IMG/VR virus record: IMGVR_UViG_3300031758_009234
Span: 1-64,000 of that record
DNA length: 64,000 bases
Direction: 5' to 3' (one strand)
Source of the DNA: an uncultured virus (IMG/VR IMGVR_UViG_3300031758_009234)
Lineage: Duplodnaviria > Heunggongvirae > Uroviricota > Caudoviricetes
The position numbers were made by a program, and so were the translations under genes. Below, one piece after another: positions 14,944-51,855 of this stretch. The notes below the pieces were generated by a model. That model was not told the DNA's origin. It worked only from the letters and a program-made list of their open reading frames with translations, and did not search any database. The stretch's first letter is position 1; each line of letters opens with the position of its first letter.

Positions 14944-15215
14944 TGAACAAGGAAATTATTGAACAGTATATACACGAATTATGTTATAAAAAATCATCAT
15001 CTGAAAATCCATATTTAGATGTCAAGGATCTTAAAATAAATAAAATTGCTATTTTAAATGATGTTGTTGAGACTGTTTACTATTTTAACTTAACAAGTCG
15101 AAAAGATCCTAATATAAAAATGGAAATAAAAGGACATCATAAATTCACAAAAAAAGATTTTATACCTTACTTGAGAGATAAAAGACTAGAAGATTTATTG
15201 AAATCCATAGACTAA
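14943..15215 (+). CDS. hypothetical protein, C-terminal tag family
   Basis: Ends YLRDKRLEDLLKSID. Confidence 0.7.
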   Translation: MNKEIIEQYIHELCYKKSSSENPYLDVKDLKINKIAILNDVVETVYYFNLTSRKDPNIKMEIKGHHKFTKKDFIPYLRDKRLEDLLKSID

Positions 15216-20461: not shown

Positions 20462-21055
20462 ATGGAAAAATTAGAATTAAGGATGTATGGATTCGTGCCA
20501 TATAACATTAGTGAAATACAAAAAGGAATACAATTTGGACACACCGTAGTTGAATATGGATTAGTAAATCATTTAGATAATGATTACTTAAATTGGGCTA
20601 AGTATAATAAAACATTTATTATTCTTAATGGTGGTACCTCAAACCACTCTGTTGATAGATATAGAGAAGAAGCTTTCAATAAAGGTTGGAGAGAAGATGA
20701 AACTTATGTTGGATCAATGGAAACAATTAAAACCACTTTAGAAGAAAATGATGTTAAGATTGCTACTTTCTACGAACCAGATTTAAATGATATGTTATCT
20801 GGTATTTGTTTTATTGTGGATGAAAGAGTTTTTAATAAGAAATACTTAGGTCTTGGAGATTGGATTGTTGAAAACTATGGTGATATGATTATGGATAATC
20901 ATGGTTTTGGATTCAATGTTTCAAGATTAGAAAAACAAATAAAGTATTCCGAGATACCAAAAGAACAAAAAATCTATCAAAAATGGGTTGAGTACATTGG
21001 TGGTGAAAAGAATGTATTTCTTAGAGACTACTTATCAAAATTTAGATTAGCATGA
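20462..21055 (+). CDS. peptidyl-tRNA hydrolase 2 (PTH2)-like phage protein
   Basis: RMY..KGIQFGH, TFIILNGG, FYEPDLNDMLSGICF. Confidence 0.6.
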   Translation: MEKLELRMYGFVPYNISEIQKGIQFGHTVVEYGLVNHLDNDYLNWAKYNKTFIILNGGTSNHSVDRYREEAFNKGWREDETYVGSMETIKTTLEENDVKIATFYEPDLNDMLSGICFIVDERVFNKKYLGLGDWIVENYGDMIMDNHGFGFNVSRLEKQIKYSEIPKEQKIYQKWVEYIGGEKNVFLRDYLSKFRLA

Positions 21056-21399
21056 CAACTTGGTTAAAAATAGAAGATAATATTTTCGAGATTATTAAAT
21101 CTGAACATCAATTCACTATTGATAATAGTTGGACTTCTAGTTTTTTTTCAATAGATACTAAATCTAATCCAACTTATTTTGATATAATACTTAATTACTA
21201 TTCGAGTAAAAAAGTTTTTGATTGGGAAGATAATAAATCAAAGGGGTTTTCAGCTAGTATAAAAACGATGGATATTTTTGATAATATTTTATCTTTTACA
21301 ATAAAGAGTAAAGAGTGGGGTATCAAGGATAAAGCTTATGAAAGAAACGAAAGATTAGAACAAATACTACCAGAAGAAAAAACTTCTGATGAAAAATAA
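21052..21399 (+). CDS. hypothetical protein, C-terminal tag family
   Basis: Ends ERNERLEQILPEEK... Confidence 0.65.
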   Translation: MTTWLKIEDNIFEIIKSEHQFTIDNSWTSSFFSIDTKSNPTYFDIILNYYSSKKVFDWEDNKSKGFSASIKTMDIFDNILSFTIKSKEWGIKDKAYERNERLEQILPEEKTSDEK

Positions 21400-21439: not shown

Positions 21440-23629
21440 ATGGGAAAAACTAATAAAGACAATCAGTATTACAAAAACTTACCTGATGTGAGAATGGCTA
21501 TTGAAGATGATGATGATGATGATAAGACATTCTCTTCATCTTCTAAGAAATCTGATACTAAATCTAAAACTCCAGTTTTAGATACATATAGTCGTGATTT
21601 GACTAAAATGGCTGAAGAGGGTAGATTAGACCCTATCGTAGGTCGTGAAAAAGAAATTGAAAGAGTTTCACAAATTCTTTCTCGTAGAAAGAAAAACAAT
21701 CCAATTTTAATTGGTGAACCAGGTGTTGGTAAATCTTCAATTGCTGAAGGATTAGCACTTAGAATTGTTCAAAGAAAAGTATCTAGACTTCTTTTTAATA
21801 AAAGAGTTGTTATGCTTGACTTAGCATCTATGGTCGCTGGTACTAAATACCGTGGACAATTTGAGGAAAGAATTAAGGCTTTAATGGCTGAAATGGAAAA
21901 AAATCCTGATGTCATCCTTTTCATTGATGAAATTCATACTATGATTGGTGCTGGTGGAGCTTCTGGATCAATGGATGCTTCCAATATGTTTAAACCAGCT
22001 TTAGCAAGAGGTGAAATTCAAATCATTGGTGCTACTACTTTAGACGAGTATAGAAAACACATTGAAAAAGATGGAGCGTTAGAAAGACGTTTTCAAAAAG
22101 TTCAAGTTGAACCTGCTACTCCAGAAGAGACAATGATTATCATTGGTAATATTAAAGATAAATATGAGTCACATCACAATGTTACTTACACACCGGAAGC
22201 AATTAAGGCTTGTGTTGATTTAACTTCTCGTTATATGACTGATAGATTTTTACCAGATAAGGCTATTGATGCTATGGATGAAGCTGGATCAAGAGTTCAT
22301 ATTTCAAATATTGTTGTTCCAAAAGAAATTACAGATATTGAAAACAAAATATTGGAGATTAAGGATCAAAAACATGATGTTATCAGATCTCAAAAATACG
22401 AAGAGGCTGCTAAATTAAGAGATACTGAGAGAAAGTTGAACGATGCTTTGGAAAAGGCTAGAAAAAACTGGGAAGAAGAATCATCTAAAAATCGTCAAAT
22501 TGTAACTGAGGATAATGTAGCAGAGGTTGTATCAATGATTACAGGTATTCCTTTACAAAAAGTAAGTGAAAAGGAAAACAATAGACTTGCTAAAATGGGT
22601 CAAGAAATTGCTGGTAAAGTAGTTGGTCAAGATGAAGCTGTTAAGAAAGTAGTTAGAGCTATTCAAAGAGGTAGAGTTGGTATGAAAGATGCTAACAGAC
22701 CTGTATTCAGTGGTATGTTGATTGGTAACTCTGGTGTTGGTAAAACTGAGTTGGCTAAACAAATCGCTAAATATCTATTTGACTCTGAGGACTCTTTAAT
22801 TAGATTGGATATGTCTGAATATATGGATAAAATTTCAATTTCTAAAATTCAAGGTTCAGCTCCAGGATATGTTGGTTATGAAGATAGTAACGTTCTTGAT
22901 AGAATTAGAAGAAAACCTTATTCTGTTATTCTTTTTGATGAGATTGAAAAAGCAAATCCTGAGGTATTTAACTTATTCTTACAAATGTTAGATGATGGTC
23001 ACATGACTGATTCACACGGTAGAAAAGTAAGTTTTAAAAATTGTATTATTTTAATGACTTCTAACGTAGGTACAAGACAAGTTAAAGATTTTGGTACTGG
23101 AGTTGGTTTCTCTACTAAAACAAGAGAAAGTCAAAATGAAGAACACATTAAGGCGATTTTAGATAAAGAGTTGAAAAATAAATTTGCTCCTGAGTTTATC
23201 AATAGATTAGATGACATTATCTACTTTAGAGATTTAGGTAAAAATGAAATCTTGAAAATTGTTGATTTAGAATTAAATAAAACAATTAAGAGAGCATCTG
23301 ACATTGGTTTCCCAATTGAAATCACAGATGAATTAAAAGATCATCTTGTTGAAGTTGGTTATGATCCTAAATTTGGTGCTAGACCTTTAAAGAGAGCTAT
23401 TCAAAGATGGGTTGATGATATAATTACTGATTATATTATTGAAAATAATCCAGAAGAAGGAACAAAATTCTTATGTGATTATAATAAAGAGGATGAACAA
23501 TCTTTTATTAAACCTATCCACACACCAAGTGAAATTAAAGAGTTACAAGAACATTTACTACCAGAAGTAAAGAATGATGATGTTAAGGTTGAGAAACCAA
23601 AACGAACAAGAAAAAAGAAAGATGAATAA
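21440..23629 (+). CDS. clpC: ClpC/ClpB-like AAA+ unfoldase lacking the N-terminal Clp repeat domain
   Basis: GEPGVGKS, FIDEIH, UVR-type middle domain KYEEAAKLRD, GNSGVGKT, GVGF (IGF-loop-like), FGARPLKR. Confidence 0.9.
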   Translation: MGKTNKDNQYYKNLPDVRMAIEDDDDDDKTFSSSSKKSDTKSKTPVLDTYSRDLTKMAEEGRLDPIVGREKEIERVSQILSRRKKNNPILIGEPGVGKSSIAEGLALRIVQRKVSRLLFNKRVVMLDLASMVAGTKYRGQFEERIKALMAEMEKNPDVILFIDEIHTMIGAGGASGSMDASNMFKPALARGEIQIIGATTLDEYRKHIEKDGALERRFQKVQVEPATPEETMIIIGNIKDKYESHHNVTYTPEAIKACVDLTSRYMTDRFLPDKAIDAMDEAGSRVHISNIVVPKEITDIENKILEIKDQKHDVIRSQKYEEAAKLRDTERKLNDALEKARKNWEEESSKNRQIVTEDNVAEVVSMITGIPLQKVSEKENNRLAKMGQEIAGKVVGQDEAVKKVVRAIQRGRVGMKDANRPVFSGMLIGNSGVGKTELAKQIAKYLFDSEDSLIRLDMSEYMDKISISKIQGSAPGYVGYEDSNVLDRIRRKPYSVILFDEIEKANPEVFNLFLQMLDDGHMTDSHGRKVSFKNCIILMTSNVGTRQVKDFGTGVGFSTKTRESQNEEHIKAILDKELKNKFAPEFINRLDDIIYFRDLGKNEILKIVDLELNKTIKRASDIGFPIEITDELKDHLVEVGYDPKFGARPLKRAIQRWVDDIITDYIIENNPEEGTKFLCDYNKEDEQSFIKPIHTPSEIKELQEHLLPEVKNDDVKVEKPKRTRKKKDE

Positions 23630-23696: not shown

Positions 23697-24422
23697 ATGA
23701 ATAGATTTGTTTTTATAATCCCATATAGAAACGTCATTAACTATATTCAAGATTGTGCTAAGTCAATTATTGGTCAGAAATACCAAAATTGGATAGCTAT
23801 TTTTTGTGATGATGCTTCAAATGATGGTACTTCTTTCAATTTACCAAAAGATGAAAGATTTACTTTAAGAAAAAATAAAGAAAGAATTACTGCCTTACCT
23901 AACATACACTATGGTATAGTTGAATCTAATTTAGATGATGAGGATATCATTTGTATTTTAGATGGTGATGATTTTTTAGTGACACCAGATGCTTTAGATA
24001 TTTTAAATTCTTTATATCAAGACAATACTTTACTTACCTATGGTCAGTATGTTTGGCCAAATGGTCAAATTGGTCATTGTAAACCATATACAAGAGAAGA
24101 GTTTAAACAACTTAGAAATGGCGGATATTGGGCTTCTCACATGAGAACTTATAAATATAAGTTATATAAGGAGTTAATGAATCAAGATCCTGAATTAAAT
24201 TGTTTCAAAGATAAAAATGGCGATTTTTATACTATGAGTTGTGATGTTGCTACAATGACACCACTTATGGAAATTGCTGGGTTTGATAGAATAAAATTCA
24301 ATCCTAATCCTATCTATTATTACAGAATACACCAACAAAATGATCATTTTGTTGACTCTAAATTACAGAAAGACGTTGCTGATGAACTTTTTGCTAAAAA
24401 TAGTTTTCAAGAAATGAAATAA
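23697..24422 (+). CDS. glycosyltransferase family 2
   Basis: FIIPYRN, CDDASNDGT, ILDGDD. Confidence 0.88.
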   Translation: MNRFVFIIPYRNVINYIQDCAKSIIGQKYQNWIAIFCDDASNDGTSFNLPKDERFTLRKNKERITALPNIHYGIVESNLDDEDIICILDGDDFLVTPDALDILNSLYQDNTLLTYGQYVWPNGQIGHCKPYTREEFKQLRNGGYWASHMRTYKYKLYKELMNQDPELNCFKDKNGDFYTMSCDVATMTPLMEIAGFDRIKFNPNPIYYYRIHQQNDHFVDSKLQKDVADELFAKNSFQEMK

Positions 24423-24463
24423 AAACTTTGTTATAAAAACAAATATAAAAAATAAAAAATAAT

Positions 24464-25087
24464 ATGCTTTTAGATTTTAACGGTATTTTAAGAAAATACA
24501 ACATGGAGATTAATGGTGTTCTACATATTGGAGCTCACTATGGTGAAGAACATTCATTATATAAAATGAATAATATAAATAAGATTGTTTATTTTGAACC
24601 TTTGAAAAATAACTTCCAAGTATTGGAATCAAAAGTTGGTTCAGATGCAACTTTATATAACATTGCTTTAGGAGCAGAAGAAAAAGAAATTGAAATGTTT
24701 GTTGAAACAGCAAATAATGGTCAATCTTCTTCTATATTAGAACCAGCTTTACACTTAGTACAATATCCTGGTATTGTTTTTCACGATAGGGAAATGGTAC
24801 AGATGAAAAGATTAGATGATGTTATTGATAACTCAAATAAAGAATACAACTTTATTAATATTGATGTTCAAGGATATGAGTTAGAAGTTTTTAAAGGAGC
24901 TACCGAAACATTAAAAAATGTAGATTACATCATTGCTGAAATTAACAGAGATGAGGTTTATAAAAACTGTGCTAAAATAGATGAGTTGTGTCAATTCTTG
25001 GGTCAATTTGGTTTTGTATTTGTAGAACAAAACTGGGTAGGTGGTACTTGGGGAGATGGTCTTTTTGTTAAAAAAAATAAATTATAA
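24464..25087 (+). CDS. FkbM family methyltransferase
   Basis: LHIGAHYGEE, FEPL, NIDVQGYELEVFKGA. Confidence 0.9.
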   Translation: MLLDFNGILRKYNMEINGVLHIGAHYGEEHSLYKMNNINKIVYFEPLKNNFQVLESKVGSDATLYNIALGAEEKEIEMFVETANNGQSSSILEPALHLVQYPGIVFHDREMVQMKRLDDVIDNSNKEYNFINIDVQGYELEVFKGATETLKNVDYIIAEINRDEVYKNCAKIDELCQFLGQFGFVFVEQNWVGGTWGDGLFVKKNKL

Positions 25088-25830
25088 TGAGAAAAATTTC
25101 AATTGCTATACCTTATTACAATAATAGCAAATTTATGAAAGAAACTCTATCTTATCCAATTACGGATGATAGAGTTTCTGAAATAATAATTTGTGATGAT
25201 AACTCATCTGATTTAGATGAGTTAAAAGTTATTATATCTGAATTAAACTCAGATAAAGTTAAACTTATTGAAAATAGTGAGAACTTAGGTGTTTATCTTA
25301 ACAAGATAAGAGCTATAAAAAATTGTAGTAATGATTGGGTTATTTTATTTGATTCTGATAATGTTATTGGTGAAAATTATATCAATCACCTATATGAAAT
25401 AGATGATTGGAATAGTGATACGATATACGCACCAGCTTTCATCGAGAAAATAAACGAGAATGGTCATCACGATAGTTATTTTGATTATAGAATTTATTCA
25501 GGATTAATAACTAAAGAGAACTTCAGAAATTTAGATCACTTTAATAGTTTATTTCAAACTATGATGAATACTTGTAACTATTTTGTCAACAAAGAAAATT
25601 ATATAAAATGTTCCGAAAAAAACAGTCCAAACTATGACACTAGGTTAATATCTTCTTTAGATTCAATTACATTGTTATCTGATTGGCTAACATCCGATAA
25701 TAAACTGTTTTTAATAAAAGATATGGGATATAAACATAGAATACATAGTAACTCTTCCTATTTAAAACATATGAATAAGATTAATGAAGGTGAGTGGACT
25801 AGACAGTTATATCAAAAAATTATGAGCTAA
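25087..25830 (+). CDS. glycosyltransferase family 2
   Basis: ISIAIPYYN, CDDNSSD, LFDSDN. Confidence 0.85.
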   Translation: MRKISIAIPYYNNSKFMKETLSYPITDDRVSEIIICDDNSSDLDELKVIISELNSDKVKLIENSENLGVYLNKIRAIKNCSNDWVILFDSDNVIGENYINHLYEIDDWNSDTIYAPAFIEKINENGHHDSYFDYRIYSGLITKENFRNLDHFNSLFQTMMNTCNYFVNKENYIKCSEKNSPNYDTRLISSLDSITLLSDWLTSDNKLFLIKDMGYKHRIHSNSSYLKHMNKINEGEWTRQLYQKIMS

Positions 25831-25831
25831 A

Positions 25832-26572
25832 ATGAATATATCTTTATGTATACCAAATTATGAAAGAATTGAAATATTAATTGATTCTTTTATCAAAGTT
25901 TTAAATGATGATAGAATATCAGAAATTGTTATAATGGATGATAACTCATCAAATTATGCTAATATAAAATTAGCATTAGATGGATTATCTAATAACAAAA
26001 TCAAACTATATAAACAAGATATAAATTTAGGAACATTTTTTAATAAACTTGAGTGTGTTAAAAAAGCGGAGAATGAATATATAATTTTATTAGACTCTGA
26101 TAATATTATTGATGTAACATACATTGATAAAATATATCAAACTGATTGGTCTAAGAATAAACTAATATCACCAGAAAGATTAATTCATCATGAACATAAC
26201 ATGTGGAATGAAAAAGGTATTTTTATAAAATATACTAAATTTAATGGGGTTAGGATTGATAAGGCATTTTGTAAAAAACACTTTTTAGATGGTGGTGACT
26301 TATTAGATGTCTTATTAAATACTGGTAATTTTTTTGTTAATAAAGAATCATATATAAAATCATTTGATATAAACACATTTAATAGAGATGTTGATATTTG
26401 TGATGTTGGATTTTTTAATTATTTATTTTTAAGTTCAAATGAAACCAATTATATAGAAGTTTGTCCTGATTTAGAATATACACATAGAGTACACCAAGGT
26501 AGTTACTATATGAATAATTCTTCTAAAAGTGGTAATCAAATTAATATACTAAAAAATATTTTTACACAATGA
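25832..26572 (+). CDS. glycosyltransferase family 2 (paralog of the previous gene)
   Basis: ISLCIPNY, MDDNS, LLDSDN, NTGNFFVNKE. Confidence 0.85.
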   Translation: MNISLCIPNYERIEILIDSFIKVLNDDRISEIVIMDDNSSNYANIKLALDGLSNNKIKLYKQDINLGTFFNKLECVKKAENEYIILLDSDNIIDVTYIDKIYQTDWSKNKLISPERLIHHEHNMWNEKGIFIKYTKFNGVRIDKAFCKKHFLDGGDLLDVLLNTGNFFVNKESYIKSFDINTFNRDVDICDVGFFNYLFLSSNETNYIEVCPDLEYTHRVHQGSYYMNNSSKSGNQINILKNIFTQ

Positions 26573-27411
26573 TGATACAAACACCTGACTCATTAAGAGT
26601 TGTTATAAATGTTCACTATCCACCTTTTAACTCACAAATATTTGAAGAGTTTTTTTATAGTAAATATTTACAAAACCAGATAGAAACTGAGAGAATATAC
26701 CTTCCAATTTTTTGGACAAGTTTGTATGTTAATAGAAACTATGGTAATGGAGATTTATCCGATATTCAAAATTTTATTGATAATCTAGATAAAGATAAAA
26801 AATATTATACAATTGTTCAATACGATGATAATATTTTAAATAACTTTGGTGATTTAGATATTAAAATATTTGCTATGGGTGGTCATGGTAAATATTCCGA
26901 TAAATGTTATCCAATTCCGTTGAATTGTTTACCACCACCAAATATTTTTATAAATCCTGATAAAGATATATTTGCTTCTTTTATTGGTAGTGATACACAC
27001 CCAGTTAGAGTCGCAATGAGAAATTCATTAGGAGGTGATTCTAAGTACTTTATTTCACAACCAATTGGTTATGAACAATTTAGAGATGTTATGTCGAGAA
27101 GTATTTTTTCTCTTTGTCCAAGAGGATATGGTGAAACATCCTTTAGAATATGTGAAGCTCTTCAAAACGAATCTATACCAGTCTATATTTATGATAACCC
27201 ACTAGTTCCTTTTAATACTGAATTTAATTTTGATGAGATTGGAGTACAAATTCATGTTAATGATATTTCAAAATTAGATGAAATATTATCTTCTAAAACA
27301 CCTGAGGATATAAATAGATATGTTGAGAGAGGTAGAGAGATTTATAAAAAATATTTTGACTATGATGGATGTTTTAACTCTATTATAGAAATATTACAAA
27401 AAAATAATTAA
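26569..27411 (+). CDS. exostosin-like (GT47) glycosyltransferase
   Basis: DIFASFIG..R, SIFSLCPRGYGETSFRICEAL..IPVYI. Confidence 0.85.
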   Translation: MMIQTPDSLRVVINVHYPPFNSQIFEEFFYSKYLQNQIETERIYLPIFWTSLYVNRNYGNGDLSDIQNFIDNLDKDKKYYTIVQYDDNILNNFGDLDIKIFAMGGHGKYSDKCYPIPLNCLPPPNIFINPDKDIFASFIGSDTHPVRVAMRNSLGGDSKYFISQPIGYEQFRDVMSRSIFSLCPRGYGETSFRICEALQNESIPVYIYDNPLVPFNTEFNFDEIGVQIHVNDISKLDEILSSKTPEDINRYVERGREIYKKYFDYDGCFNSIIEILQKNN

Positions 27412-27414
27412 AAG

Positions 27415-28227
27415 ATGATTTCAGTTTATTTTAATGGTAGATTAGGTAATCAAATATTTCAATATTTAGCTACTAGATTAGCATCATATAACAGTGGTAT
27501 TAAATTTTTTGTACCAAAAAGTAAAGAAGAAGGTAATAATTTAGCAAATTATTGTAGAAAGTTTGGATACTATGAGATGTCAAATCCATCAAATCCACAT
27601 TATTGGATTGGTGATAAACTATTTGATATAGACTTTGGTGAAATCGATGGTGATTTACTACACAAACAAGAAGAAGGATCTCTTGATAATGTATCAGATA
27701 ATACTTTTTTAAATGGTTTTTTTCAATCCGAAAACTATTTTATAGATAAAAAAGATTTAGTAAAATCTTGGATTCCTATTAGAAAAGAAAATATAGATAA
27801 AACAATTGATTTGATTCAAAAATATCCAATTGATGAATATTGTTATATACACTTCAGAGGAGCTGATTATAAAGATATTCATCATTGGTACTTACCTATT
27901 ACTTACTATCAAGATGCTATTGATAAAGTTAGAGAAGTAAAAAATGATTTAAAGTTTTTAGTAATAACGGATGATGTTGAGGAGGCTAAGAAATTTTTCC
28001 CAGATTTTGATGTTATTAGTAATGAGATGGAAATTGATTTTTGCTTACTTTATCAATCTAAATATACGGTTATACCAAATTCTTCTTTTTCTTGGTGGGC
28101 TAGTTGGTTAAATGATGATAATATAATTACTGTTGCTCCTGAAAGATGGTTTAATTATAATGTTGGTGGTGAATTTGATCCTCCTAAAATTAAAAGTGAT
28201 AAATTCACATACATTGATAAAAAATAA
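27415..28227 (+). CDS. alpha-1,2-fucosyltransferase-like (GT11)
   Basis: GRLGNQIFQY, GFFQSENYF, HFRGADY, NSSFSWW. Confidence 0.9.
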   Translation: MISVYFNGRLGNQIFQYLATRLASYNSGIKFFVPKSKEEGNNLANYCRKFGYYEMSNPSNPHYWIGDKLFDIDFGEIDGDLLHKQEEGSLDNVSDNTFLNGFFQSENYFIDKKDLVKSWIPIRKENIDKTIDLIQKYPIDEYCYIHFRGADYKDIHHWYLPITYYQDAIDKVREVKNDLKFLVITDDVEEAKKFFPDFDVISNEMEIDFCLLYQSKYTVIPNSSFSWWASWLNDDNIITVAPERWFNYNVGGEFDPPKIKSDKFTYIDKK

Positions 28228-28234
28228 AAAGATT

Positions 28235-29020
28235 ATGATTATAAGTAAAATACAAGGTGGTTTAGGAAATCAAATGTTTCAATGGGCTTATGGTAGATAT
28301 TTATCTCATAAACATGATACCGAGTTGAGATTAGATACTAATTTCTATAATTATAGATTACCCGGTACAACTCAAAGAGAGTTTTTATTAAATAGATTTA
28401 CAAACATTTCAACAAATACAGATTTAAGAGTATCATTAGTTGGTCCTATCTATAAAATAGAAGATAATTTTATTTTTAAAGAGGTGCCAAAGCCAGTGAA
28501 TGTAAATTATTATCTAGATGGATATTGGCAAAGTGAAAAATATTTTAAAGAAATAGAATCTTTGATTAGAGAAGATTTTAAACCAAGTGATGAGATGTTG
28601 AGTAAACTATTAAAAACTCCATTGATTGATAAAAATAATATTTCACTTCATATAAGAAGAACTGATTATGTTACCTCAAATGGTTATCATCCAGTACAAT
28701 CTATTGAGTATTATAATAAAGCAGTTGAGACAATTGGTGAATATGATTACATCTTTGTTTTTTCTGATGATATAAAATGGTGTAAAGAAAATTTACATTT
28801 TGATAATATGATATTTATGGAAGGTTTTACTGACATTCAAGATTTATATTTGATGTCTTTTTGTAAGAATAATATTATTGCTAATAGTTCATTCAGTTGG
28901 TGGGGGGCTTGGTTAAATAATAATATGAATAAAAAAGTAGTTGCTCCTGAGAAATGGTTTGGTGATATGGCTAATATTAACACAACTGATATTATACCAG
29001 AAAGTTGGATAAAGATATGA
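28235..29020 (+). CDS. alpha-1,2-fucosyltransferase-like (GT11)
   Basis: GGLGNQMFQ, GYWQSEKYF, HIRRTDY, ANSSFSWWGAW. Confidence 0.92.
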   Translation: MIISKIQGGLGNQMFQWAYGRYLSHKHDTELRLDTNFYNYRLPGTTQREFLLNRFTNISTNTDLRVSLVGPIYKIEDNFIFKEVPKPVNVNYYLDGYWQSEKYFKEIESLIREDFKPSDEMLSKLLKTPLIDKNNISLHIRRTDYVTSNGYHPVQSIEYYNKAVETIGEYDYIFVFSDDIKWCKENLHFDNMIFMEGFTDIQDLYLMSFCKNNIIANSSFSWWGAWLNNNMNKKVVAPEKWFGDMANINTTDIIPESWIKI

Positions 29021-30123
29021 AGTATGATTATTTAATAGTTGGATCGGGATTATTTGGCTCAGTTTTTGCTAGAGAAATGAAAAACTCTGGTAAAAGTTGT
29101 TTAATTATTGAAAAGAGAAAACATATTGCCGGTAACCTTTATACTGAGAATATACATGGTATCAATGTTCATAAATATGGACCTCATATATTTCATACTT
29201 CGGATGATAAAGTTTGGGAATATGTTAATAAGTATGCTAAGTTTAATCATTTTAGATATGAACCTTTAGCAAACTATAATGGTGAGATTTATAATCTACC
29301 ATTCAACATGAATACATTTGGTAAAATGTGGAATATTTTTACACCTGAAGAGGTTAAATCTAAAATAGATTCTCAGAGAATAAATATTGATAATCCAAGA
29401 AATTTAGAAGAGTTTGCTCTTTCTATGGTTGGTAAAGATATTTATGAAAAACTAATCAAAGAATATACAAAAAAACAATGGGGTAAAGATCCTTCTGAAT
29501 TACCAACTTCTATAATTAAAAGAATACCAATTCGATTTAAATATGATAATAACTATTATAGAGATAAATATCAAGGTATACCAATTGGTGGATATACTAA
29601 GATGATAGAAAATATAGTTGGTGATATAGAAGTAATTTATGGTGAAGATTTTTTATCTAAACGTGAATATTATGAATCTATATCAAATAAAATTGTTTAC
29701 ACTGGAAAGATTGATGAGTTTTTTGATTATGAATTTGGTAAATTAGAATATAGAAGTTTAAGATTTGATGAAGAAATATTACCTATCTCAAATTATCAAG
29801 GTGTTGCTGGTGTTAATTACACTAGCGAGAATGTATCATATACCCGTATAATAGAACATAAACACTTTGACTTATTAGATGATACTAAATACACTATAAT
29901 AACCAAGGAGTATCCACAAAAGTATAATGGTGAAAATGAAGCTTACTACCCTGTTAATGATTATTTAAACAATTCTATATATAATCTCTATAAAGAAAGA
30001 AGTAAAGCTTTAGATAAATATATCTTTGGTGGTAGATTAGCAAATTATAAATATTATGACATGCACCAAGTAATAGCAGAAGCTTTAAAAAAATCAAAAG
30101 ATGAGATATGGTCGAAGTTGTAA
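29017..30123 (+). CDS. glf: UDP-galactopyranose mutase
   Basis: IVGSGLFG, HKYGPHIFHT, YQGIP, GRLANYKYYDMHQ. Confidence 0.95.
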   Translation: MKYDYLIVGSGLFGSVFAREMKNSGKSCLIIEKRKHIAGNLYTENIHGINVHKYGPHIFHTSDDKVWEYVNKYAKFNHFRYEPLANYNGEIYNLPFNMNTFGKMWNIFTPEEVKSKIDSQRINIDNPRNLEEFALSMVGKDIYEKLIKEYTKKQWGKDPSELPTSIIKRIPIRFKYDNNYYRDKYQGIPIGGYTKMIENIVGDIEVIYGEDFLSKREYYESISNKIVYTGKIDEFFDYEFGKLEYRSLRFDEEILPISNYQGVAGVNYTSENVSYTRIIEHKHFDLLDDTKYTIITKEYPQKYNGENEAYYPVNDYLNNSIYNLYKERSKALDKYIFGGRLANYKYYDMHQVIAEALKKSKDEIWSKL

Positions 30124-30719
30124 TAGCTAAATATAAAGAAGATATAAGTTGGACAAAACTATTTAAGAGATCTAAACTTTTTATTTATGACAAAAGTGGT
30201 GATGATAATGGTTATATAAATTTACCAAATTTTGGTAGAGAAGCTCATACCTATCTATATCATATAGTTAATAATTATGATAATTTATCTGATTATGTTT
30301 GTTTCCTACAAGGTAATCCATATGATGGAGTAAAGGGTAATTTAAGTCAAAATATTGAGACTATTGACTCTTATAACGGATCAGACTTTCTTTGTTTATC
30401 ACATCTTTTAAAATGTAACTTGGATGGCGGACCTGTACACCCTGGTTTGAATATAAAAGAAATTATATTTGATAAATATTTTGAAAATAGTCCAAATGAA
30501 TTATATTTTATAGTAGGAGCTCAATTTTTAGTTAGTAGAAATTTTATAAAAATGAGACCTAAGCAATTTTATATTAACCTACTAAGTGAGTTTGATAGAG
30601 ATGATATAAATGATACAGTGATTCCACCACATAAAGGTGGTGGTGTTAATAAAATGCCGTGGATAATGGAGAGAATTTGGTTCTATGTATTTAACGAAAA
30701 ATATAAATTAAAATTATGA
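30108..30719 (+). CDS. DUF3431-like glycan-related protein
   Basis: VVIAKYKEDISW, PNFGREAHTYLYHIV, GAQFLVSR. Confidence 0.75.
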   Translation: MVEVVIAKYKEDISWTKLFKRSKLFIYDKSGDDNGYINLPNFGREAHTYLYHIVNNYDNLSDYVCFLQGNPYDGVKGNLSQNIETIDSYNGSDFLCLSHLLKCNLDGGPVHPGLNIKEIIFDKYFENSPNELYFIVGAQFLVSRNFIKMRPKQFYINLLSEFDRDDINDTVIPPHKGGGVNKMPWIMERIWFYVFNEKYKLKL

Positions 30720-31477
30720 TTAACGAAAAAGATATTTGTTTTGTAACAACAACACTATATACTAAATTTTTGAATTATCAATCAAAAATTTTAAAGAGTA
30801 ATTTTCCTGAAAGTCAACATATAGTAGTTGATGGTAGAAAGGAATGGCCCAATTCTTGGTTTTATTGGATTGAAGAAGTTAAAAAAACTGATTGTAAATA
30901 CTTTGTTCATATTGATGAAGATTTCTTTTTAACATCAAAGGATGAGTTTTTAAAAGCTGTTCAGAAACTTGAAAGTGTTGATATACTTGGTGTATCAGAT
31001 GGATATTCTCAATTTAGAGGTGCTAATCCAGTGGCTATTAATGCTTTTTTACTTATGGGTAAAATTGAATTTTTGAGAAAAGTTAATTTCTCAAATATAC
31101 AATTTGGGTTTCATCCTGTTAATGGTTGGCTTAATAACTATGGAATTAAGTTTGAAGAAGATTATAAAAAAGATTTTAAATATCAACACGAAATTCAAGG
31201 TGGTTCTAATTTTAATTATGAACAAGAGCCTTACTACGCATTTTTATGGACTATGAAAAAGTTAGGTTGTAAATTTGATTATTTATATCCACACTTTGAT
31301 GAGAGATTTAAATCGACAAATCCTAGATTAGATAAAGATTCACCAGATATAGGAATTCATATGTGGTATACAAGAAACTGGTCTAGTAATGAAGATGTAC
31401 ATGGTATGACTAATATTGATAGATACAATTCTGTTGAAAGTTATATACTTGAAAATTTAATATTAGAAAATGAATAG
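30716..31477 (+). CDS. putative GT-A fold glycosyltransferase
   Basis: DxD-like HIDEDFF; lies in the glycan cluster. Confidence 0.55.
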   Translation: MINEKDICFVTTTLYTKFLNYQSKILKSNFPESQHIVVDGRKEWPNSWFYWIEEVKKTDCKYFVHIDEDFFLTSKDEFLKAVQKLESVDILGVSDGYSQFRGANPVAINAFLLMGKIEFLRKVNFSNIQFGFHPVNGWLNNYGIKFEEDYKKDFKYQHEIQGGSNFNYEQEPYYAFLWTMKKLGCKFDYLYPHFDERFKSTNPRLDKDSPDIGIHMWYTRNWSSNEDVHGMTNIDRYNSVESYILENLILENE

Positions 31478-32153
31478 AGTTTATATAAATGTTGCTGTGA
31501 TGGGTTCTGTTAATGAAGTTTTGACAAACCTATTAAATAGAATTAAAGATAGTAGTTTATACGAAAATTGTGATGTAATCAATTTAGTCATTAATGGTGA
31601 TATAAACTTATTAAAGGTGAATTTAGATGATCCTAAATATAAAATTTGGAATAAATATAAAGATACTTCATATAATGAGTTTCCAACTTTAGATCTAATT
31701 TGGAAACATTCACAAGACGAAGATTTCAATGTTCTTTATTTACACACAAAAGGAGTAAGTAGAAATCATCCTTTTATAACGGATTGGACTAATTACTTAT
31801 CTTATTTTAGTATAAATAAATGGGAAGATAGATTAGAAGAGTTAAAAGAGAATGATTGTACTGGTGTTAATTTAAGAGGTAATCCAGAAGATATCAAATT
31901 TCATCCTATGTATTGGGGATATGGTAAAGCCCCTAAACATTATTCTGGTAATTTTTGGTGGAGTAAATCTTCACATATTAAAAATTTATGTAATCCAATC
32001 ACTTGGATGCCTAATAATGATTATCTGAAATGGAGAATGATGTGTGAAATGTGGGTTTGTCAATTACCAGAATCAAAATACTATAATGCTCATACATCAG
32101 ATGTTGATCATTACCAAAATCCATATCCAGGAGAATTATATGAAACAGTTTAA
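31470..32153 (+). CDS. putative glycosyltransferase-like protein
   Basis: EFPTL, YLHTKGVS, HYSGNFWW motifs typical of proteins in viral glycan clusters. Confidence 0.6.
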   Translation: MNRVYINVAVMGSVNEVLTNLLNRIKDSSLYENCDVINLVINGDINLLKVNLDDPKYKIWNKYKDTSYNEFPTLDLIWKHSQDEDFNVLYLHTKGVSRNHPFITDWTNYLSYFSINKWEDRLEELKENDCTGVNLRGNPEDIKFHPMYWGYGKAPKHYSGNFWWSKSSHIKNLCNPITWMPNNDYLKWRMMCEMWVCQLPESKYYNAHTSDVDHYQNPYPGELYETV

Positions 32154-32301
32154 TCCCAGTGATGAGTTATCGAAGTTACTTTCTCAAGAATTAGCTAAGT
32201 CTATTGATAAAGAAATTATGAATGAACTATTTAGACTTTTTCCAAAAGTAACAATGAGTAGAAGAAATAAAATTAATAAAATATACAAAAAAGGTGATTA
32301 A
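32140..32301 (+). CDS. small protein with a capsid-like helix and the C-terminal tag
   Basis: MKQFNPSDELSKLLSQELAKSIDKEIMNEL...RRNKINKIYKKGD. Confidence 0.6.
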   Translation: MKQFNPSDELSKLLSQELAKSIDKEIMNELFRLFPKVTMSRRNKINKIYKKGD

Positions 32302-32306
32302 ATTAA

Positions 32307-32951
32307 TCACCTTTTTTTTCTCCAATGAGCAACTAAGTAGTTATCACCTATTAAATTATTATCAATAATAACTGGTGTATCAAAGTCTTCAAGTATTTTT
32401 GCTTTATTATAAAGAAACTCAATATCATAGAAGTTAAAATGAAATGTCATTGTAAATTCTTTAGATGTTACTTTTTGTTGTGAGTAATTAAATGTATTAT
32501 CACTTAAAGCTTTTAATATTATTTCATAAAATCGAATTATATAGATAGCATCTCTGTGTATATCAACACAAGTAATAGTAAATGGATAAAGAAATTGATT
32601 ATCTAAATCTAAATAGTGTTTTGTTACAATATCAAATAAAAGCCAATAATTTAAATCAGAGTCAACAGATCTAAAAGTTATTGTTAACTCGTGAGTTGTT
32701 GATATATCCTGAACATTTTTAGCAGGTTTGAATTGTCTTTCTTTACCTCTTGGTAGAACTTGTTTTGGTAAATCAATAGAAATACCTGGAAAGTTAACAG
32801 ATTTAATAGTAGAGTTAATATAATCTATTATATTTTCGTATTGAACCCAATTCTTTTCAAGAATAGGCTTATATGTCTCAACTAACTCTGGCTTTAAAAA
32901 GTTACTCGGTAAATTAAATATAAACTGACTGGACTGTGAACTTAACCTCAT
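32307..32951 (-). CDS. T4 tail tube/tube-terminator-like structural protein (gp19/gp3-like)
   Basis: IKSVNFPGISI, LTITFRSVDSDLNYW, FTMTF..Y pattern. Confidence 0.55.
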   Translation of the reverse strand: MRLSSQSSQFIFNLPSNFLKPELVETYKPILEKNWVQYENIIDYINSTIKSVNFPGISIDLPKQVLPRGKERQFKPAKNVQDISTTHELTITFRSVDSDLNYWLLFDIVTKHYLDLDNQFLYPFTITCVDIHRDAIYIIRFYEIILKALSDNTFNYSQQKVTSKEFTMTFHFNFYDIEFLYNKAKILEDFDTPVIIDNNLIGDNYLVAHWRKKR

Positions 32952-32968
32952 TTATTTATTATTAATTT

Positions 32969-35098
32969 TTATGGTTTTTTATTAGGTGTTGTTTGACCTG
33001 AAATTAACTTTCTAGTAACGATAGCAGTTTCTTTTGGCATCTTAGGATCTTTAATGATATCTGGTGCCTTAGGAGCTTCATTATTAAGAATTTGAATATT
33101 ATCAAGACTGTCGTAAATTTTAAATAATCCAGTATAAATAACTGTACTATTAGCACCTGTTGTACCAACAATATAAAAAATATTTACTTTAGCATCATAA
33201 ATCTTTTTAACATTTAAAAATTTAGATTCAGGTATTTTAAATACAACTTGTCCTAACTTTAAGTTTACTTCTTTTGATTCAGTCATCAATTTAAAATCAT
33301 GTGATGATGTATCATTTTTTATAACCATTTTAACTTCTGTAAAAGATGTTAAATCTAAATAGTCTGGTTGTGTACTAACACCACTTGCAATAACAAACTT
33401 CATTATGTTATCAAATGGATATATTAATACTTGTAATTTTCCAATACCATAGAAAGTTGTGCTATTAACTATTGAGTTTTCTGATTTTGCTATAATATTA
33501 AATCTATCAACAAAAACTGGAAAAGGTACTTTTACTTCTTGGACTTGTACATTTCCAGCACCACCGCCTCCACCAAGACCCGCTCCGTTTCCGCCACCAG
33601 CACCACCAGCGCCTGTGTTTACATTAGGATAACCACCATTTGGATTACCAGAACCACCCGCTCCGGTTCCTGTACCAGCACCTGTACCAACACCTGTACC
33701 AGCACCTGTACCAGCACCTGTACCAGTGCCTGTTCCGTTTCCAGTACCGGTTCCTAAACCATTTGTATTATTAATATTGTTTCCTTGATTTTGTAAAGCT
33801 AATAGATCTTTAAATGTTCCATTTGATCCAGAAAATAGTGCTTTTCCTATAGCTATTCCATTTTTATATCCAACACCTATTTGTTTTCCAAAATTTCTAC
33901 CAGATACAGAATTTGATTTACCTAAAGAGTTAGTATTCCCTAATAAAGCAGCATCTATATTATTTTTAATATTATAAACTTTTGGTTTTAATGCGTTATC
34001 TAAATTTATTTTAGATAAACGTATGCTATATTTGGTTATTTCATCTTGTAACATACCATAAGAAGCTCTTCTTAATATAAACGAATCATCAACTGAATCT
34101 ATAAGTCTCATTTCAACATCTATAATTGCGGTTGTTGTTGAGAATTTAATAATTGGTCTATAATCAACTGTTTCGTTAAAACCATCATTTATAGTAACTG
34201 TTGTCTTTTTACCTCTTATATTTTGCTCATAAGTAATAATATCATACTGAACATAGTATCTACGTCCTTCTCTTACAGAATCATCAATAAACTTTTTAAA
34301 CTCAGCAATATTATTATTATATGTTCCAAATATTTCAAAATAATCACCATCGGATGAGTGTTGAATTTTTAATCCTAATCTTTCAAATTCTGGTGTTTGT
34401 GGTAAAGTTGTCGTAACTTTAGTTCCTAAAATATAATTTGTTCTACCATTAATCGTCTCAATACCATCAACAAAGTAAAAATCTATGAAAATTGGAGATG
34501 TTGAGCTTAAACCAATACCATCCGTTAAATTAAAATTAATACTATTTTCTTTTGGATATTCTCCAGTTAGTTGAGCTGCAACTTCACTAACAGCTGGTAT
34601 ATCAATTGATATATTTTTACCCCATAGTTTTTCTTGAAAATAAAGTGGTGGTGCTGAATAATTTAGTAAATTTGATTGACTAGTATTAGTCATGTCAAAA
34701 AAGAAATTTGATAAATCAAAACTTATTGTATTTGTTCTATCAAATGTATAAACTTTAATATAAAAACCTAAATGCTCACCGAAAGTCCAGTTTACTGGAA
34801 TATGAATTTTAACTGTATCATGTCTGACTGGTATACCAACTGAATAGTCTTTATATTGTAAATATGAATAGTAAGTCGTATCAACTACTGAAAACTTACC
34901 TGATATTGCATCTAATCTAAAAAGTTGATTTGATGGTATATTACCAGAAACACCATCTGGATCACCAACGTATGATCTTCTTCTATCTCTTGAGTCAATT
35001 AATATTTGATATTTCTCAGCTATAAGATTACCATCATTATAAATATATTCTAATAATATATCTTTATCTAATTTTAAATATTTTGAAATCTTAGCCAT
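32969..35098 (-). CDS. large putative structural protein with a Gly-rich insertion
   Basis: 709 aa; TTAATATATA upstream; (GTGA)n tract. Confidence 0.6.
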   Translation of the reverse strand: MAKISKYLKLDKDILLEYIYNDGNLIAEKYQILIDSRDRRRSYVGDPDGVSGNIPSNQLFRLDAISGKFSVVDTTYYSYLQYKDYSVGIPVRHDTVKIHIPVNWTFGEHLGFYIKVYTFDRTNTISFDLSNFFFDMTNTSQSNLLNYSAPPLYFQEKLWGKNISIDIPAVSEVAAQLTGEYPKENSINFNLTDGIGLSSTSPIFIDFYFVDGIETINGRTNYILGTKVTTTLPQTPEFERLGLKIQHSSDGDYFEIFGTYNNNIAEFKKFIDDSVREGRRYYVQYDIITYEQNIRGKKTTVTINDGFNETVDYRPIIKFSTTTAIIDVEMRLIDSVDDSFILRRASYGMLQDEITKYSIRLSKINLDNALKPKVYNIKNNIDAALLGNTNSLGKSNSVSGRNFGKQIGVGYKNGIAIGKALFSGSNGTFKDLLALQNQGNNINNTNGLGTGTGNGTGTGTGAGTGAGTGVGTGAGTGTGAGGSGNPNGGYPNVNTGAGGAGGGNGAGLGGGGGAGNVQVQEVKVPFPVFVDRFNIIAKSENSIVNSTTFYGIGKLQVLIYPFDNIMKFVIASGVSTQPDYLDLTSFTEVKMVIKNDTSSHDFKLMTESKEVNLKLGQVVFKIPESKFLNVKKIYDAKVNIFYIVGTTGANSTVIYTGLFKIYDSLDNIQILNNEAPKAPDIIKDPKMPKETAIVTRKLISGQTTPNKKP
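33669..33728. repeat. 12-bp tandem repeat CCTGTACCAGCA x~5 encoding (GTGA)n
   Basis: Directly visible in the sequence. Confidence 0.85.
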
Positions 35099-39109: not shown

Positions 39110-39352
39110 TTAATTTTGTTGGTTAATTCCCATAATCTTTTCAGATAAATATTCTGTATAAGCAATACTACCCAAACTCTCTTTTGTGTATTGAGAATAA
39201 TCTGGCTTATACCATCTACTATCAAAATAATTATTATGTGAATTATCAATTACTTCACCCCTAAAAATTTTTAAGATTTTTTGAGCTCTTAAAAAAGAAT
39301 TATATCCAACATCATTTCTATATGGATCAACACTTATATAATATGGGTTCAT
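39110..39352 (-). CDS. hypothetical protein with an internal tag-like motif
   Basis: ISVDPY..LRAQKILKIF. Confidence 0.55.
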   Translation of the reverse strand: MNPYYISVDPYRNDVGYNSFLRAQKILKIFRGEVIDNSHNNYFDSRWYKPDYSQYTKESLGSIAYTEYLSEKIMGINQQN

Positions 39353-39519
39353 TTTCTAATTGTTTTAATACGTTCAACTTGATATTTCATTATATCGACA
39401 TTTTTATATTGGTTTAAGAAATCAACTATTTTTTTATACATCTCAATAGGTGTTTCTAATAAAATACATCCATATGGATAAACCCCCTCATTTATAAACT
39501 CAATATATTTTTTTATCAT
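39349..39519 (-). CDS. small leader-family protein, possibly truncated
   Basis: Not in the ORF track; MIKKYIEFINEGVYPYGCILL... Confidence 0.55.
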   Translation of the reverse strand: MIKKYIEFINEGVYPYGCILLETPIEMYKKIVDFLNQYKNVDIMKYQVERIKTIRK

Positions 39520-40173: not shown

Positions 40174-40497
40174 TTAGTTTAAACTATAATAACCTGGGCC
40201 AGGATAACCTTCAAATCCTGGAGGTGGTCCATCTTGATCATCGTCTTCATCTTCATCATAATAATCTTCATCATCGTCATCCGAATCAAAATCAAAACCC
40301 ATATTTACCAATTCAGACATAACTTCATCGGTTAGTTTCATATCACCTTTTCTTTCTTCCATGTAATTATCAAACATACCTACTGTGAACTTACCTTTTT
40401 CCTTTTTAATTTCTTCTAGTTTTGGTAGAATATCTTCAGCAATTTCTTCAGCTAAACTCTTATCATTATAACCTTCAAACGTTTTTAAATATTTCAT
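40174..40497 (-). CDS. leader-family protein
   Basis: MKYLKTFEG. Confidence 0.7.
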   Translation of the reverse strand: MKYLKTFEGYNDKSLAEEIAEDILPKLEEIKKEKGKFTVGMFDNYMEERKGDMKLTDEVMSELVNMGFDFDSDDDDEDYYDEDEDDDQDGPPPGFEGYPGPGYYSLN

Positions 40498-40753: not shown

Positions 40754-41398
40754 TTATTTTTTAATGTATTCATATACATATTTTTTAAATCTCTTTTGAG
40801 TTTCTAAATCCATAGAAGAATAAACATTTTGAATCCAAGATACTTTTTTACCACCTCTCAAAACATCTAAAATATCATCATCACTCATTCCCACTTTTCT
40901 ACATTGAACAATAAATGAGTCAGCATAAGCCATAACTTCATCGGTTGAACTAAAATATTTCTTATGATCCACTGGTGATCTTTCTAAGTTTCTTATAGTT
41001 ACATCTGGTCTTCTTTGAGCTTGTTGTTTATGTACAGATTCGTGTCTTAATACTTCTTCCAAAAAGTCTAATAACCTATTCTTTAATGGACTATTAATAG
41101 ACTTTATAAACTCATTCTCATCTATACAGATATACATTTTATTAGTATAAACATTATGAGCTCCCCATCGAATACCACCCATTAATGGAGGCATATCAAC
41201 CGGAACCAACTCGATTTCCTTTTTTGTTTGTAGTTTAGATTTAAAGTATTCAACATCAACAAACTCAACATTCATATCATTGAATATCTCTTTTAAGTTA
41301 TCTAATGTTATGTTACTCATTGATCTAACTTTTTCAAGAGCTTCCGTGAAATCATATGGTTGAATTACAGCCTCATTAAATCTTTTCAAATATTTCAT
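40754..41398 (-). CDS. leader-family zincin-like metallopeptidase
   Basis: MKYLKRFNEA; HExxH in LRHESVHKQQ; downstream Glu in DEVMAYA. Confidence 0.7.
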   Translation of the reverse strand: MKYLKRFNEAVIQPYDFTEALEKVRSMSNITLDNLKEIFNDMNVEFVDVEYFKSKLQTKKEIELVPVDMPPLMGGIRWGAHNVYTNKMYICIDENEFIKSINSPLKNRLLDFLEEVLRHESVHKQQAQRRPDVTIRNLERSPVDHKKYFSSTDEVMAYADSFIVQCRKVGMSDDDILDVLRGGKKVSWIQNVYSSMDLETQKRFKKYVYEYIKK

Positions 41399-41421: not shown

Positions 41422-41766
41422 TTAATTTCTTCTTATATATGATATGTGTAAATTATAATTGATATAATCAATTGAGAATGTCGCTGGATTTCTAATTGAT
41501 TTAGAATCAACTTCTCCTCTTCTATACAATCTGAATCCAAATCCTTTAAGATAATTATCCAAATGGTTAAATACATCTGATATTTCATCTAAAGTAAATT
41601 TATTCTTTGATGAGATATCGATTGTAACTTGATCAACTGGTTTATCAAAATAACTAATAGTATATTTAAAATAACTTGGTAGTTCCATCAAAACATCTTC
41701 AATATATTCCTTATCAGGTAATTCTAAAACAGATTCAAACAACTTAAAGCTTTTTATCCTTTTCAT
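41422..41766 (-). CDS. leader-family protein
   Basis: MKRIKSFKLFES. Confidence 0.7.
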   Translation of the reverse strand: MKRIKSFKLFESVLELPDKEYIEDVLMELPSYFKYTISYFDKPVDQVTIDISSKNKFTLDEISDVFNHLDNYLKGFGFRLYRRGEVDSKSIRNPATFSIDYINYNLHISYIRRN

Positions 41767-42534: not shown

Positions 42535-42897
42535 TTAATTTTTACGACTATAAATACCAACCGACAGTGCATAATTATATGAGTTATCCGGTAAATCATA
42601 GAACTTAACATCTTCTAATTCATATCCTTCAAACCTAATTTTATATTGTGGTAATCTTGGAATATCTTTTAATCTCTTTTCACCAAGTTCTTTAGCCATT
42701 TGTACCATTTCATCTCTATCATAAACATCATAGTTTGAAAAACATCTATCACACCAACCTTCGGTATAAATAATTTTATCTCCAATTTTAGTTATGATAT
42801 TTGTTTGAGATGGAATATCAGAATCGGGTATAGAGTTTACTAAGTCCGATAATTCGGATTCAAAGTTAAAACTCTCAAATAATTTAAGTTTTTTCAT
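42535..42897 (-). CDS. leader-family protein
   Basis: MKKLKLFES. Confidence 0.7.
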   Translation of the reverse strand: MKKLKLFESFNFESELSDLVNSIPDSDIPSQTNIITKIGDKIIYTEGWCDRCFSNYDVYDRDEMVQMAKELGEKRLKDIPRLPQYKIRFEGYELEDVKFYDLPDNSYNYALSVGIYSRKN

Positions 42898-51681: not shown

Positions 51682-51855
51682 TTATTTTGAATATATTTTT
51701 CTAATTTTAGATTGTCTATTTGAAATTATCCATCGTCTCAATTCTTCAATGAACAAATTATCTGGGTATATTCTACCATTATTCCTATTCATTCGATCAA
51801 ATTTTTGTAAAACTCCGTGTAAAATATATTTACCATCAACTATTTCTACTTTCAT
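51682..51855 (-). CDS. small protein with a prohead-protease-like fragment and the C-terminal tag
   Basis: Not in the ORF track; [61 protein letters not shown] overlap with dnaJ. Confidence 0.65.

Follow-up and report, generated by a model that had tools for sequence, protein, structure and literature searches.

MicroProteins, small proteins that retain a single interaction module of a larger one and act as competitors, are known among eukaryotic transcription regulators, with Id and LITTLE ZIPPER as examples. Short address peptides direct the loading of heads and shells, as do the T4 capsid targeting sequence, which is N-terminal and cleaved, and the cargo-loading peptides of encapsulins, and small helical factors such as the C-terminal helix-turn-helix of scaffold proteins, SaPI CpmB and P4 Sid modify capsid assembly. 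Here, we describe an open reading frame (ORF) at positions 32140-32301 of a 64,000-nucleotide stretch of DNA (hereafter, the window) from the uncultured virus IMGVR_UViG_3300031758_009234. Its 53-residue product is a two-part micro-protein, composed of a helix derived from the major capsid protein and a tag-like basic tail, and is under selection.

T4 gp23 and gp24 (PF07068; structures 5VF3, 7VS5, 8GMO and 1YUE) provide the counterpart of the helix: judged by sequence, residues 4-33 of the ORF product, or 13-61 in full-length members of its family, are homologous to gp23 270-318 and gp24 178-216. The ORF holds, however, only ~30-50 of the more than 500 residues of gp23, without N-arm, I-domain, A-domain or P-domain sheet, and the T4 capsid proteins in turn lack the basic tail. 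A capsid peptide with a biological activity of its own is on record for T4, in which the 29-residue Gol region of gp23 is reported to activate the Lit protease through EF-Tu (PMC3014915). Like Gol as portrayed there, the copied helix is a short, highly conserved piece of capsid protein; by the same account, Gol belongs to the first quarter of gp23 and has no gene of its own, whereas the ORF copies approximately residues 270-318 and is separately encoded and conserved. A reading of the ORF as a copy of Gol was rejected, since the Gol region is not covered.

The micro-protein resembles MicroProteins in that it stems from a single module of a larger protein and is kept by selection, and by analogy it would be a plausible competitor; it differs from them in its added shared tail. 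This tail recalls address peptides in being a short terminal sequence common to unrelated proteins, but the known address sequences are unrelated to the tag of this clade, and the T4 signal differs in position and cleavage as well. The predicted helix-turn-basic-helix shape and a possible action on head assembly are reminiscent of the capsid-assembly modifiers, which are, however, not copies of a capsid protein. When translations were compared by eye, no likeness to the T4 prohead core proteins gp67, gp68 and gp22 was seen. A search of the full text of articles found no paper on capsid-fragment micro-proteins or on the tag; the "Moraphage" paper describes genomes of up to 307 kb and is not shown to concern the clade (PMC12619734).

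Homology and conservation of the capsid helix

The ORF translates to MKQFNPSDELSKLLSQELAKSIDKEIMNELFRLFPKVTMSRRNKINKIYKKGD. Its sole Pfam match was Gp23 (PF07068; E 0.0055, 16.6 bits), in which residues 4-33 aligned to positions 168-197 of the 376-position profile with a score below the Pfam gathering cut-off of 24.4, and its sole PHROG match was phrog_138, major head protein (E 0.0089). Because the major capsid gene is absent from the 76.9-kb record to which the window belongs, capsid proteins of relatives were used for further comparison. Against a hidden Markov model (HMM) of six gp23/gp24-type proteins, the ORF scored 21.4 bits, a value reached by none of 1000 shuffled versions (best, 5.0 bits); shuffles of four capsid proteins (500 each) yielded at most 9.4 bits, compared to 13.0-27.4 for the real ones. 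Profile-profile alignment of the family with the capsid proteins (hhalign) gave a probability of 95.5% and an E of 1.6e-8 over 49 columns, placing family residues 13-61 on T4 gp23 270-318. All 37 aligned family members matched Pfam Gp23 at E<=0.1 (best, 3.9e-7), and the top seven of the ten matches in a PDB sequence search were T4 gp24 or gp23 at the homologous place. Given the shuffle controls, the profile-profile match, the family-wide Gp23 matches and the PDB matches, the helix is, at the level of sequence, homologous to the gp23/gp24 spine-helix segment, with a likeness beyond chance. The original prediction of a gp23-like helix in this ORF, which had proposed profile-profile alignment as a check, was borne out, with the sequence as quoted.

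The segment that was copied comprises the strand leading into the P-domain's spine helix and the helix itself, of which the window copy keeps the helix only. In its 53 residues, which cover part of the profile, no N-arm, no E-loop or I-linkers and no P or A domain of a full HK97-type fold were found; a product of this size cannot build the capsid fold.

A profile of the ORF and two GenBank homologues retrieved 257 proteins at E<=0.01, mostly of 70-75 residues. They are carried by phages of 313-642 kb with the gene at one fixed place; among GenBank phages, the family occurs only in two huge relatives, LR745206.1 and LR756502.1. The automatic cluster name in the ESM Atlas is 'Major capsid protein Gp23 domain-containing protein'. 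With a consensus of M..KTGAGGEIYSN.EAD.LSS.YG.D..DQLT.MLSEELAKEIDK.ILRGLG.EPDRNKRRKNSINKIFK, the family is nearly invariant in helix, linker and tail alike. The window ORF has both the helix motif L-S-x-E-[LI]-A-[KR]-x-I-D-[KR] and the tail R-R-x-N-x-I-N-K-I-[FY]; it lacks the block K-T-G-A-G-G-E-I-Y-S-N and the linker G-L-E-P-D-R-N-K, the latter being replaced by ELFRLFPKVTMS. When the ORF is aligned with its two GenBank homologues, sixteen positions are invariant in the three sequences (D8, L10, L14, S15, E17, A19, I22, D23, L30, P35, R41, N43, I45, N46, K47, I48), and D23, L30, R41, N43, I45, N46 and I48 remain so in the 37-member alignment, where K47 is kept in at least 90%. AF2 modelling of a full-length member from 57 aligned sequences predicted a helix at 16-53, a turn and a second helix at 57-72 (mean pLDDT 70.8, pTM 0.36). 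A proposal that the linker holds a T4-type L/I-x-E protease site was rejected by eye, as L-G-L-E does not fit. The ratio of nonsynonymous to synonymous substitution rates (dN/dS) was 0.13-0.74 in all 28 pairs formed by eight genes.

Synteny was assessed in eight family loci from genomes rated 91-98% complete by CheckV, and in the two GenBank genomes. In the window and in all eight family loci, the gene ends a variable glycan cluster and converges on a conserved tail module, with one extra HD-domain gene between the two in two of the eight. The start overlaps the upstream gene by 11-20 nt at each of the eight (starts taken as the first ATG), though three different genes stand there. The true capsid gene of the relatives is ~240 kb away, and the micro-protein gene has the distribution of a core gene, not a patchy one. 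With such a distribution and with family parts that hardly vary, a conserved partner is likely.

The ribosome-binding site, the terminator, the 257 relatives, the fixed synteny and a dN/dS below 1 together establish the ORF as a real, selected gene. It is, conversely, very improbable that we are dealing with a dead relic or a chance likeness between amphipathic helices: the 16.6 bits of the window copy do fall under the Pfam cut-off of 24.4, and the loss of ~22 N-terminal residues and of the conserved linker would suit decay, but the shuffle controls, the profile-profile match, the relatives, the synteny and the dN/dS values contradict this explanation.

At least four further architectures of small proteins contain the same capsid segment, either by itself or embedded. 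Proteins of 187-280 residues hold it between unrelated ends; among these sizes, a ~190-residue family (loci L027, L030 and L031 5001-5573) carries strand and helix inside unrelated N- and C-terminal parts and is encoded on contigs of 86-247 kb, downstream of a gene for a PARP-like catalytic domain (three contigs). A 113-residue protein has the helix at its end, and a 99-residue protein of a 352-kb contig (L033 5049-5348) starts with it (Pfam Gp23 E 3.4e-4); the gene of the latter lies directly before DnaJ-like and ClpA/B-like genes. At loci L016 and L017, proteins that differ from the family share its helix. Finally, in a chimera of 125-129 residues, strand and spine helix precede a stretch (PMVRRVF...VPVQPL) that resembles a conserved gp23 segment of the first quarter (Pfam Gp23 E 5e-27).

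The chimera gene lies directly 5' of GT2, DegT and WbqC genes in four of four loci, with stop and start overlapping. Together with the position of the micro-protein gene, whose overlapping start closes a glycan cluster in the window and in eight of eight family loci, this arrangement of an unrelated family would suit an accessory of virion glycosylation, which could link the glycan-cluster enzymes to the capsid protein or itself be the glycan acceptor. We give this explanation only a small probability: the upstream enzymes differ between genomes, leaving no fixed enzyme partner, other capsid-segment proteins adjoin chaperone or PARP-like genes instead, and glycan islands often collect accessory genes.

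The C-terminal tail and further protein fragments

The tail RRNKINKIY is placed four residues before the stop. A loose tag motif, R-x(2,3)-[KR]-[ILV]-x2-[ILV]-[ILFYT], was written after viewing the protein ends of the window, where it has seven matches within the C-terminal 20 residues of 104 ORFs versus three in 18,163 internal positions, a 37-fold enrichment. Out of sample, the 984 ORFs of LR756502.1 gave the same 37-fold enrichment, with 100 C-terminal matches (~95 ORFs) versus 45 in 181,272 internal positions. The tighter form of the motif is R-[DEN]-x-[KR]-[IL]-x-x-[ILV]-[LIF]. Most of the 103 tag-carrying ORFs, among 108 LR756502.1 proteins scanned, had no Pfam family.

Whether the micro-protein bears this very tag is a separate matter. 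The usual tail of its family, RRKNSINKIF, has S at the K position of the tag and is only tag-like. A matrix derived from the tags of the relative placed the tails of window and family among the best 0.06-0.3% of background 12-mers, the window tail within the top 0.3%, whereas a matrix derived from the family tail scored positively for ORF 32140-32301 only among the window ORFs. The common C-terminal tag that had been proposed thus exists in the window and in LR756502.1, while its identity with the tail of the micro-protein is, from the sequences, plausible but not proven, strict sameness not being supported by the family-tail matrix. Codon choice within the motif matches that of the genome as a whole, and the DNA downstream is not conserved; we therefore consider the tag to be kept as protein, and rejected the idea that it is the end of a mobile DNA cassette. 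A further candidate, half a UVR motif read by the ClpB M-domain, was rejected by eye, the hydrophobic register being off by one residue.

A tag on ~95 of 984 ORFs of LR756502.1, with unrelated bodies and kept at the protein level, raises the possibility of a packaging address. By analogy, the micro-protein would be a basic cargo or internal protein loaded into the head, its helix docking on shell or scaffold and its tail serving as the putative signal. The basic nature of the tail and the adjoining tail module would agree with such a role, and head-loading address peptides are an established idea. Yet the S for K in the family's usual tail, which reaches only the top 0.06-0.3% of background, counts against it, and we regard it as distinctly unlikely.

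Comparison of small and large ORFs of LR756502.1 revealed further fragment-type proteins. Three small ORFs match the phage's own capsid protein with 42-46% identity: an 81-residue ORF covers residues 32-86 (E 1e-7), a tagged 59-residue ORF residues 421-451 (E 1e-3) and a tagged 61-residue ORF residues 513-546 (E 3e-7). Small-ORF homologues of the three are present in 3, 1 and 2 of five further genomes, respectively. In addition, a tagged 49-residue ORF matches a segment of DNA polymerase, and three small ORFs match pieces of the phage's ClpB. The proposed repertoire of structural-protein fragments therefore stands for this relative, with three capsid fragments, two of them tagged, next to the polymerase and ClpB pieces, whereas the use of its members as baits is so far a conjecture; in the 76.9-kb record of the window, no second capsid fragment was found, and the searches made turned up no portal or terminase fragments. 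Two window ORFs put forward as capsid-derived, 53258-53794 and 39110-39352, did not hold up, matching neither Gp23 at E<=10 (a threshold to be read with the HMMER filters in mind, which drop most matches above E ~0.1) nor, by blastp at E<=0.01, the relative's large proteins, capsid included. Likewise, the gp21-like ORF that had been invoked was not recovered, with no PF03420 match at E<=1 in a record that is ~29% complete, so that the phage may still have one.

Taken together, these copies, which cover four or more capsid blocks, a segment of DNA polymerase and pieces of ClpB, could be read as tagged micro-copies of large phage proteins that serve programmable protein targeting, with the ORF as one guide. 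By native-like complementation, a copy would associate with its full-length counterpart, from its own or a rival phage, and the common tail would recruit a single common reader, be it an unfoldase, a protease or a compartment, to the target. We judge this quite improbable.

On the minus strand of the window, a 56-residue ORF (39349-39519) is similar to the C-terminal 47 residues of a protein of 263 residues from the relative LR756502.1 (40% identity, E 3.6e-7) and, by this likeness, may be another fragment-type small gene. Two small window ORFs, 373-693 and 10527-10700, carry a UvrB/UvrC (UVR) motif like that of the ClpB M-domain; the same M-domain region is matched by small tagged ORFs of LR756502.1.

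Candidate roles of the micro-protein

The sequence evidence makes it probable that the micro-protein functions as a molecular mimic of the capsid protein. The role we favour, tentatively and at somewhat less than an even chance, is that of a mimic acting on capsid folding or assembly. It is preferred for three reasons: the near-invariance of the family and its core-like gene; the link between this helix and gp31 in T4, where a triple change within the same helix (G292S/V306I/V307I) is reported to remove the need for the gp31 co-chaperonin (PMC9546572); and the presence of a chaperone set in the window together with the chaperone-adjacent relative at L033. ClpB, DnaK, DnaJ and GrpE are all encoded in the window, which suggests a connection to folding.

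Under this proposal, the micro-protein would mimic the spine helix and occupy a site that handles the spine-helix segment of the still unfolded or unassembled capsid protein. Candidates for the site are the capsid protein itself and a conserved folding factor from the phage DnaK/DnaJ/GrpE/ClpB set. Occupancy by the mimic would then tune capsid folding or polymerization, and the tail would couple the micro-protein to a putative reader of the shared tag. Co-folding of the cognate capsid protein and micro-protein of one 385-kb IMG/VR genome returned a score of 0.00 in a run without controls, and is counted neither for nor against this proposal.

Several observations weigh against a role in folding or assembly. 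The binding partner is putative only. In the intact capsid protein, the spine helix is buried in the core and offers no natural docking surface, and the window copy is without the ~22 N-terminal residues that include the strand and without the conserved linker. Chaperone adjacency is seen at one locus, L033, while two independent capsid-fragment families adjoin glycan clusters, which a mimic would leave unexplained. Equally unexplained by an assembly role is the DNA-polymerase fragment among the sister micro-proteins. Finally, the family profile scored 27.4 and 25.0 bits on marine T4-like capsid proteins compared to 14.2-16.7 on the clade's own (34 of 34), so that the helix is nearer to the former, an odd property for a helper of the phage's own capsid.

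The last two points are among those that would fit an immune decoy, which we regard as unlikely but as the main rival. Here, the micro-protein would show a conserved capsid peptide to a host capsid sensor and soak it up or misdirect it, with the tail delivering the pair to a common handler. The varied repertoire of LR756502.1, which copies the three capsid blocks listed above and the spine helix as well as a DNA_pol_B segment (profile 58-91), would be in line with this role, as would a helix that resembles the general T4-like consensus more than it does the capsid of the phage itself. A precedent is offered by Gol and Lit, where, according to PMC3014915, a short gp23 peptide suffices for recognition, and the 125-129-residue chimera joins the helix to a stretch like the first quarter of gp23, where Gol is said to lie, a likeness judged by eye and without sight of the exact Gol residues. 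However, decoys are usually patchy and fast-evolving, whereas this gene is nearly invariant and has a fixed place in every family locus seen; moreover, no defence sensor of the spine-helix segment is known, Gol being elsewhere in gp23, and no host is known.

The preference for marine T4-like capsids, on which the family profile scores ~10 bits higher than on those of the clade, could also point to a weapon against competing phages: as a dominant-negative fragment, the micro-protein would poison folding or assembly of canonical T4-type capsids in co-infected cells and spare its own, diverged capsid. The other capsid fragments of LR756502.1 match their own capsid protein, with the 42-46% identity given above, no shared host is known, and the proposal is pure inference; it seems to us highly unlikely.

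Sequence is nearly the sole source of knowledge on huge phages, and the bulk of their small genes have no assigned role; one such gene is here a copy, under strict conservation, of the capsid helix on which, as PMC9546572 reports, the need for a chaperonin in T4 depends. Its tail resembles one borne by ~10% of the clade's proteins. With the sister fragments of capsid, polymerase and ClpB added, it suggests that working micro-proteins are habitually made from pieces of the phage's own essential proteins. If true, this would represent a new class of phage regulators or counter-defences, provide ready-made peptide probes for capsid folding and give a handle on the reader of the shared tag.

Surroundings of the gene in the window

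The 76.9-kb IMG/VR record that includes the window has a completeness of 29% according to CheckV, and the window has a G+C content of ~27%. Its closest GenBank relatives are the uncultured phages LR745206.1 (634,780 bp) and LR756502.1 (642,428 bp), the latter being a complete 642-kb genome; other relatives are IMG/VR contigs of 313-483 kb that are 91-98% complete (CheckV). Near-identical DNA was found in lake and freshwater metagenomes, and no RNA data sets were listed as carrying window positions 29000-35000. Contigs of two further runs had identical letters across the ORF, one run possibly being the source sample. Besides the chaperones, Pfam and PHROGs identified a single-strand DNA-binding protein of the gp32 type, a RecA/UvsX-like protein and the small chain of ribonucleotide reductase, and several homing endonucleases are encoded. 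Coordinates of the features are given in the table.

Table. Positions of the micro-protein gene, its signals and neighbours, and related features of the window and of other genomes
Feature	Sequence	Position	Strand	Remarks
Micro-protein gene	Window	32140..32301	+	53 codons and stop; shortened member of the ~75-residue capsid-segment family
Ribosome-binding site GGAG	Window	32130..32133	+	6 nt 5' of the ATG; read from sequence
Capsid spine-helix copy	Window	32149..32238	+	Residues 4-33; Pfam Gp23 profile 168-197, hhalign
Basic amphipathic tail RRNKINKIY	Window	32260..32286	+	Residues 41-49; fits the clade's C-terminal tag motif
Hairpin terminator	Window	32287..32317		14 pairs, then a T run; common to the micro-protein gene and the converging tail-module gene
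Upstream gene	Window	31470..32153	+	End overlaps the micro-protein start by 14 nt
Variable glycan cluster	Window	23697..32153	+	GT2, GT11, GT47-like, FkbM methyltransferase, UDP-galactopyranose mutase, DUF3431 (Pfam, PHROGs)
Converging neighbour gene	Window	32307..32951	-	70-81% identity across 8 syntenic loci
ClpB	Window	21440-23629		Chaperone set
DnaJ	Window	51852-52922		Chaperone set
GrpE	Window	53794-54321		Chaperone set
DnaK	Window	60290-62170		Chaperone set
Small ORFs ending R-[DEN]-x-K-[IL]-[ND]-x-[IL]-L	Window	10672-10950, 10947-11291, 11275-11526, 14943-15215, 21052-21399, 51682-51855
ORFs starting with MK(H/Y)(L/I)(K/R)xF(N/E)E	Window	3457-3879, 3876-4262, 4259-4651, 40174-40497, 40754-41398, 41422-41766, 42535-42897, 48027-48653, 48653-49618, 62659-63153
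TATAAATA sites near gene starts	Window	9180, 14564, 19512, 23674, 60265	+
TATAAATA sites near gene starts	Window	38274, 39528, 42898	-
Capsid-fragment ORFs	LR756502.1	80294-80539 (+), 277261-277446 (+), 501868-502047 (-)		Matches to own capsid protein
Tagged 49-residue ORF	LR756502.1	523495-523644	+	DNA_pol_B, E 1.3e-4, Pfam profile 58-91
Chimera loci	L016, L021, L022, L023	3830-4219, 3998-4375, 3878-4255, 1538-1915 (in this order)		Smaller phage contigs

The micro-protein gene is the closing gene of the glycan cluster, and no Pfam family was found for the gene just upstream of it. The shared hairpin was the single terminator found by the scan, compared to 0.4 expected. On the other side, the converging gene had no Pfam match of its own, but look-alike ESM Atlas clusters of its product carry Phage_TTP_2 and Phage_T4_gp19; as a lead only, it probably encodes a tail tube protein. 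Just upstream of this tail-tube-like gene, 32969-35098 on the minus strand encodes a conserved protein of 709 residues with a low-complexity stretch rich in Gly, Thr and Ala. It had no family match and, by its position, may be a sheath or other tail protein.

The word TATAAATA occurs 23 nt ahead of the first glycan-cluster gene, and also precedes the gp32 and DnaK genes. In total, 35 sites were counted versus 22.5 expected, several of them 10-45 nt ahead of gene starts, and the sequence may represent a promoter word, perhaps a T4-late-like one, although the sites before the gp32 and DnaK genes leave room for other timing.

Two further observations concern the coding content. About ten window ORFs start with the common N-terminal motif MK(H/Y)(L/I)(K/R)xF(N/E)E, which is also found at the start of the 81-residue capsid-fragment ORF of LR756502.1 (80294-80539). 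Finally, in the 638-residue ORF at 16595-18511, a flavodoxin/FMN-reductase-like protein is interrupted by an intein that contains a LAGLIDADG endonuclease.

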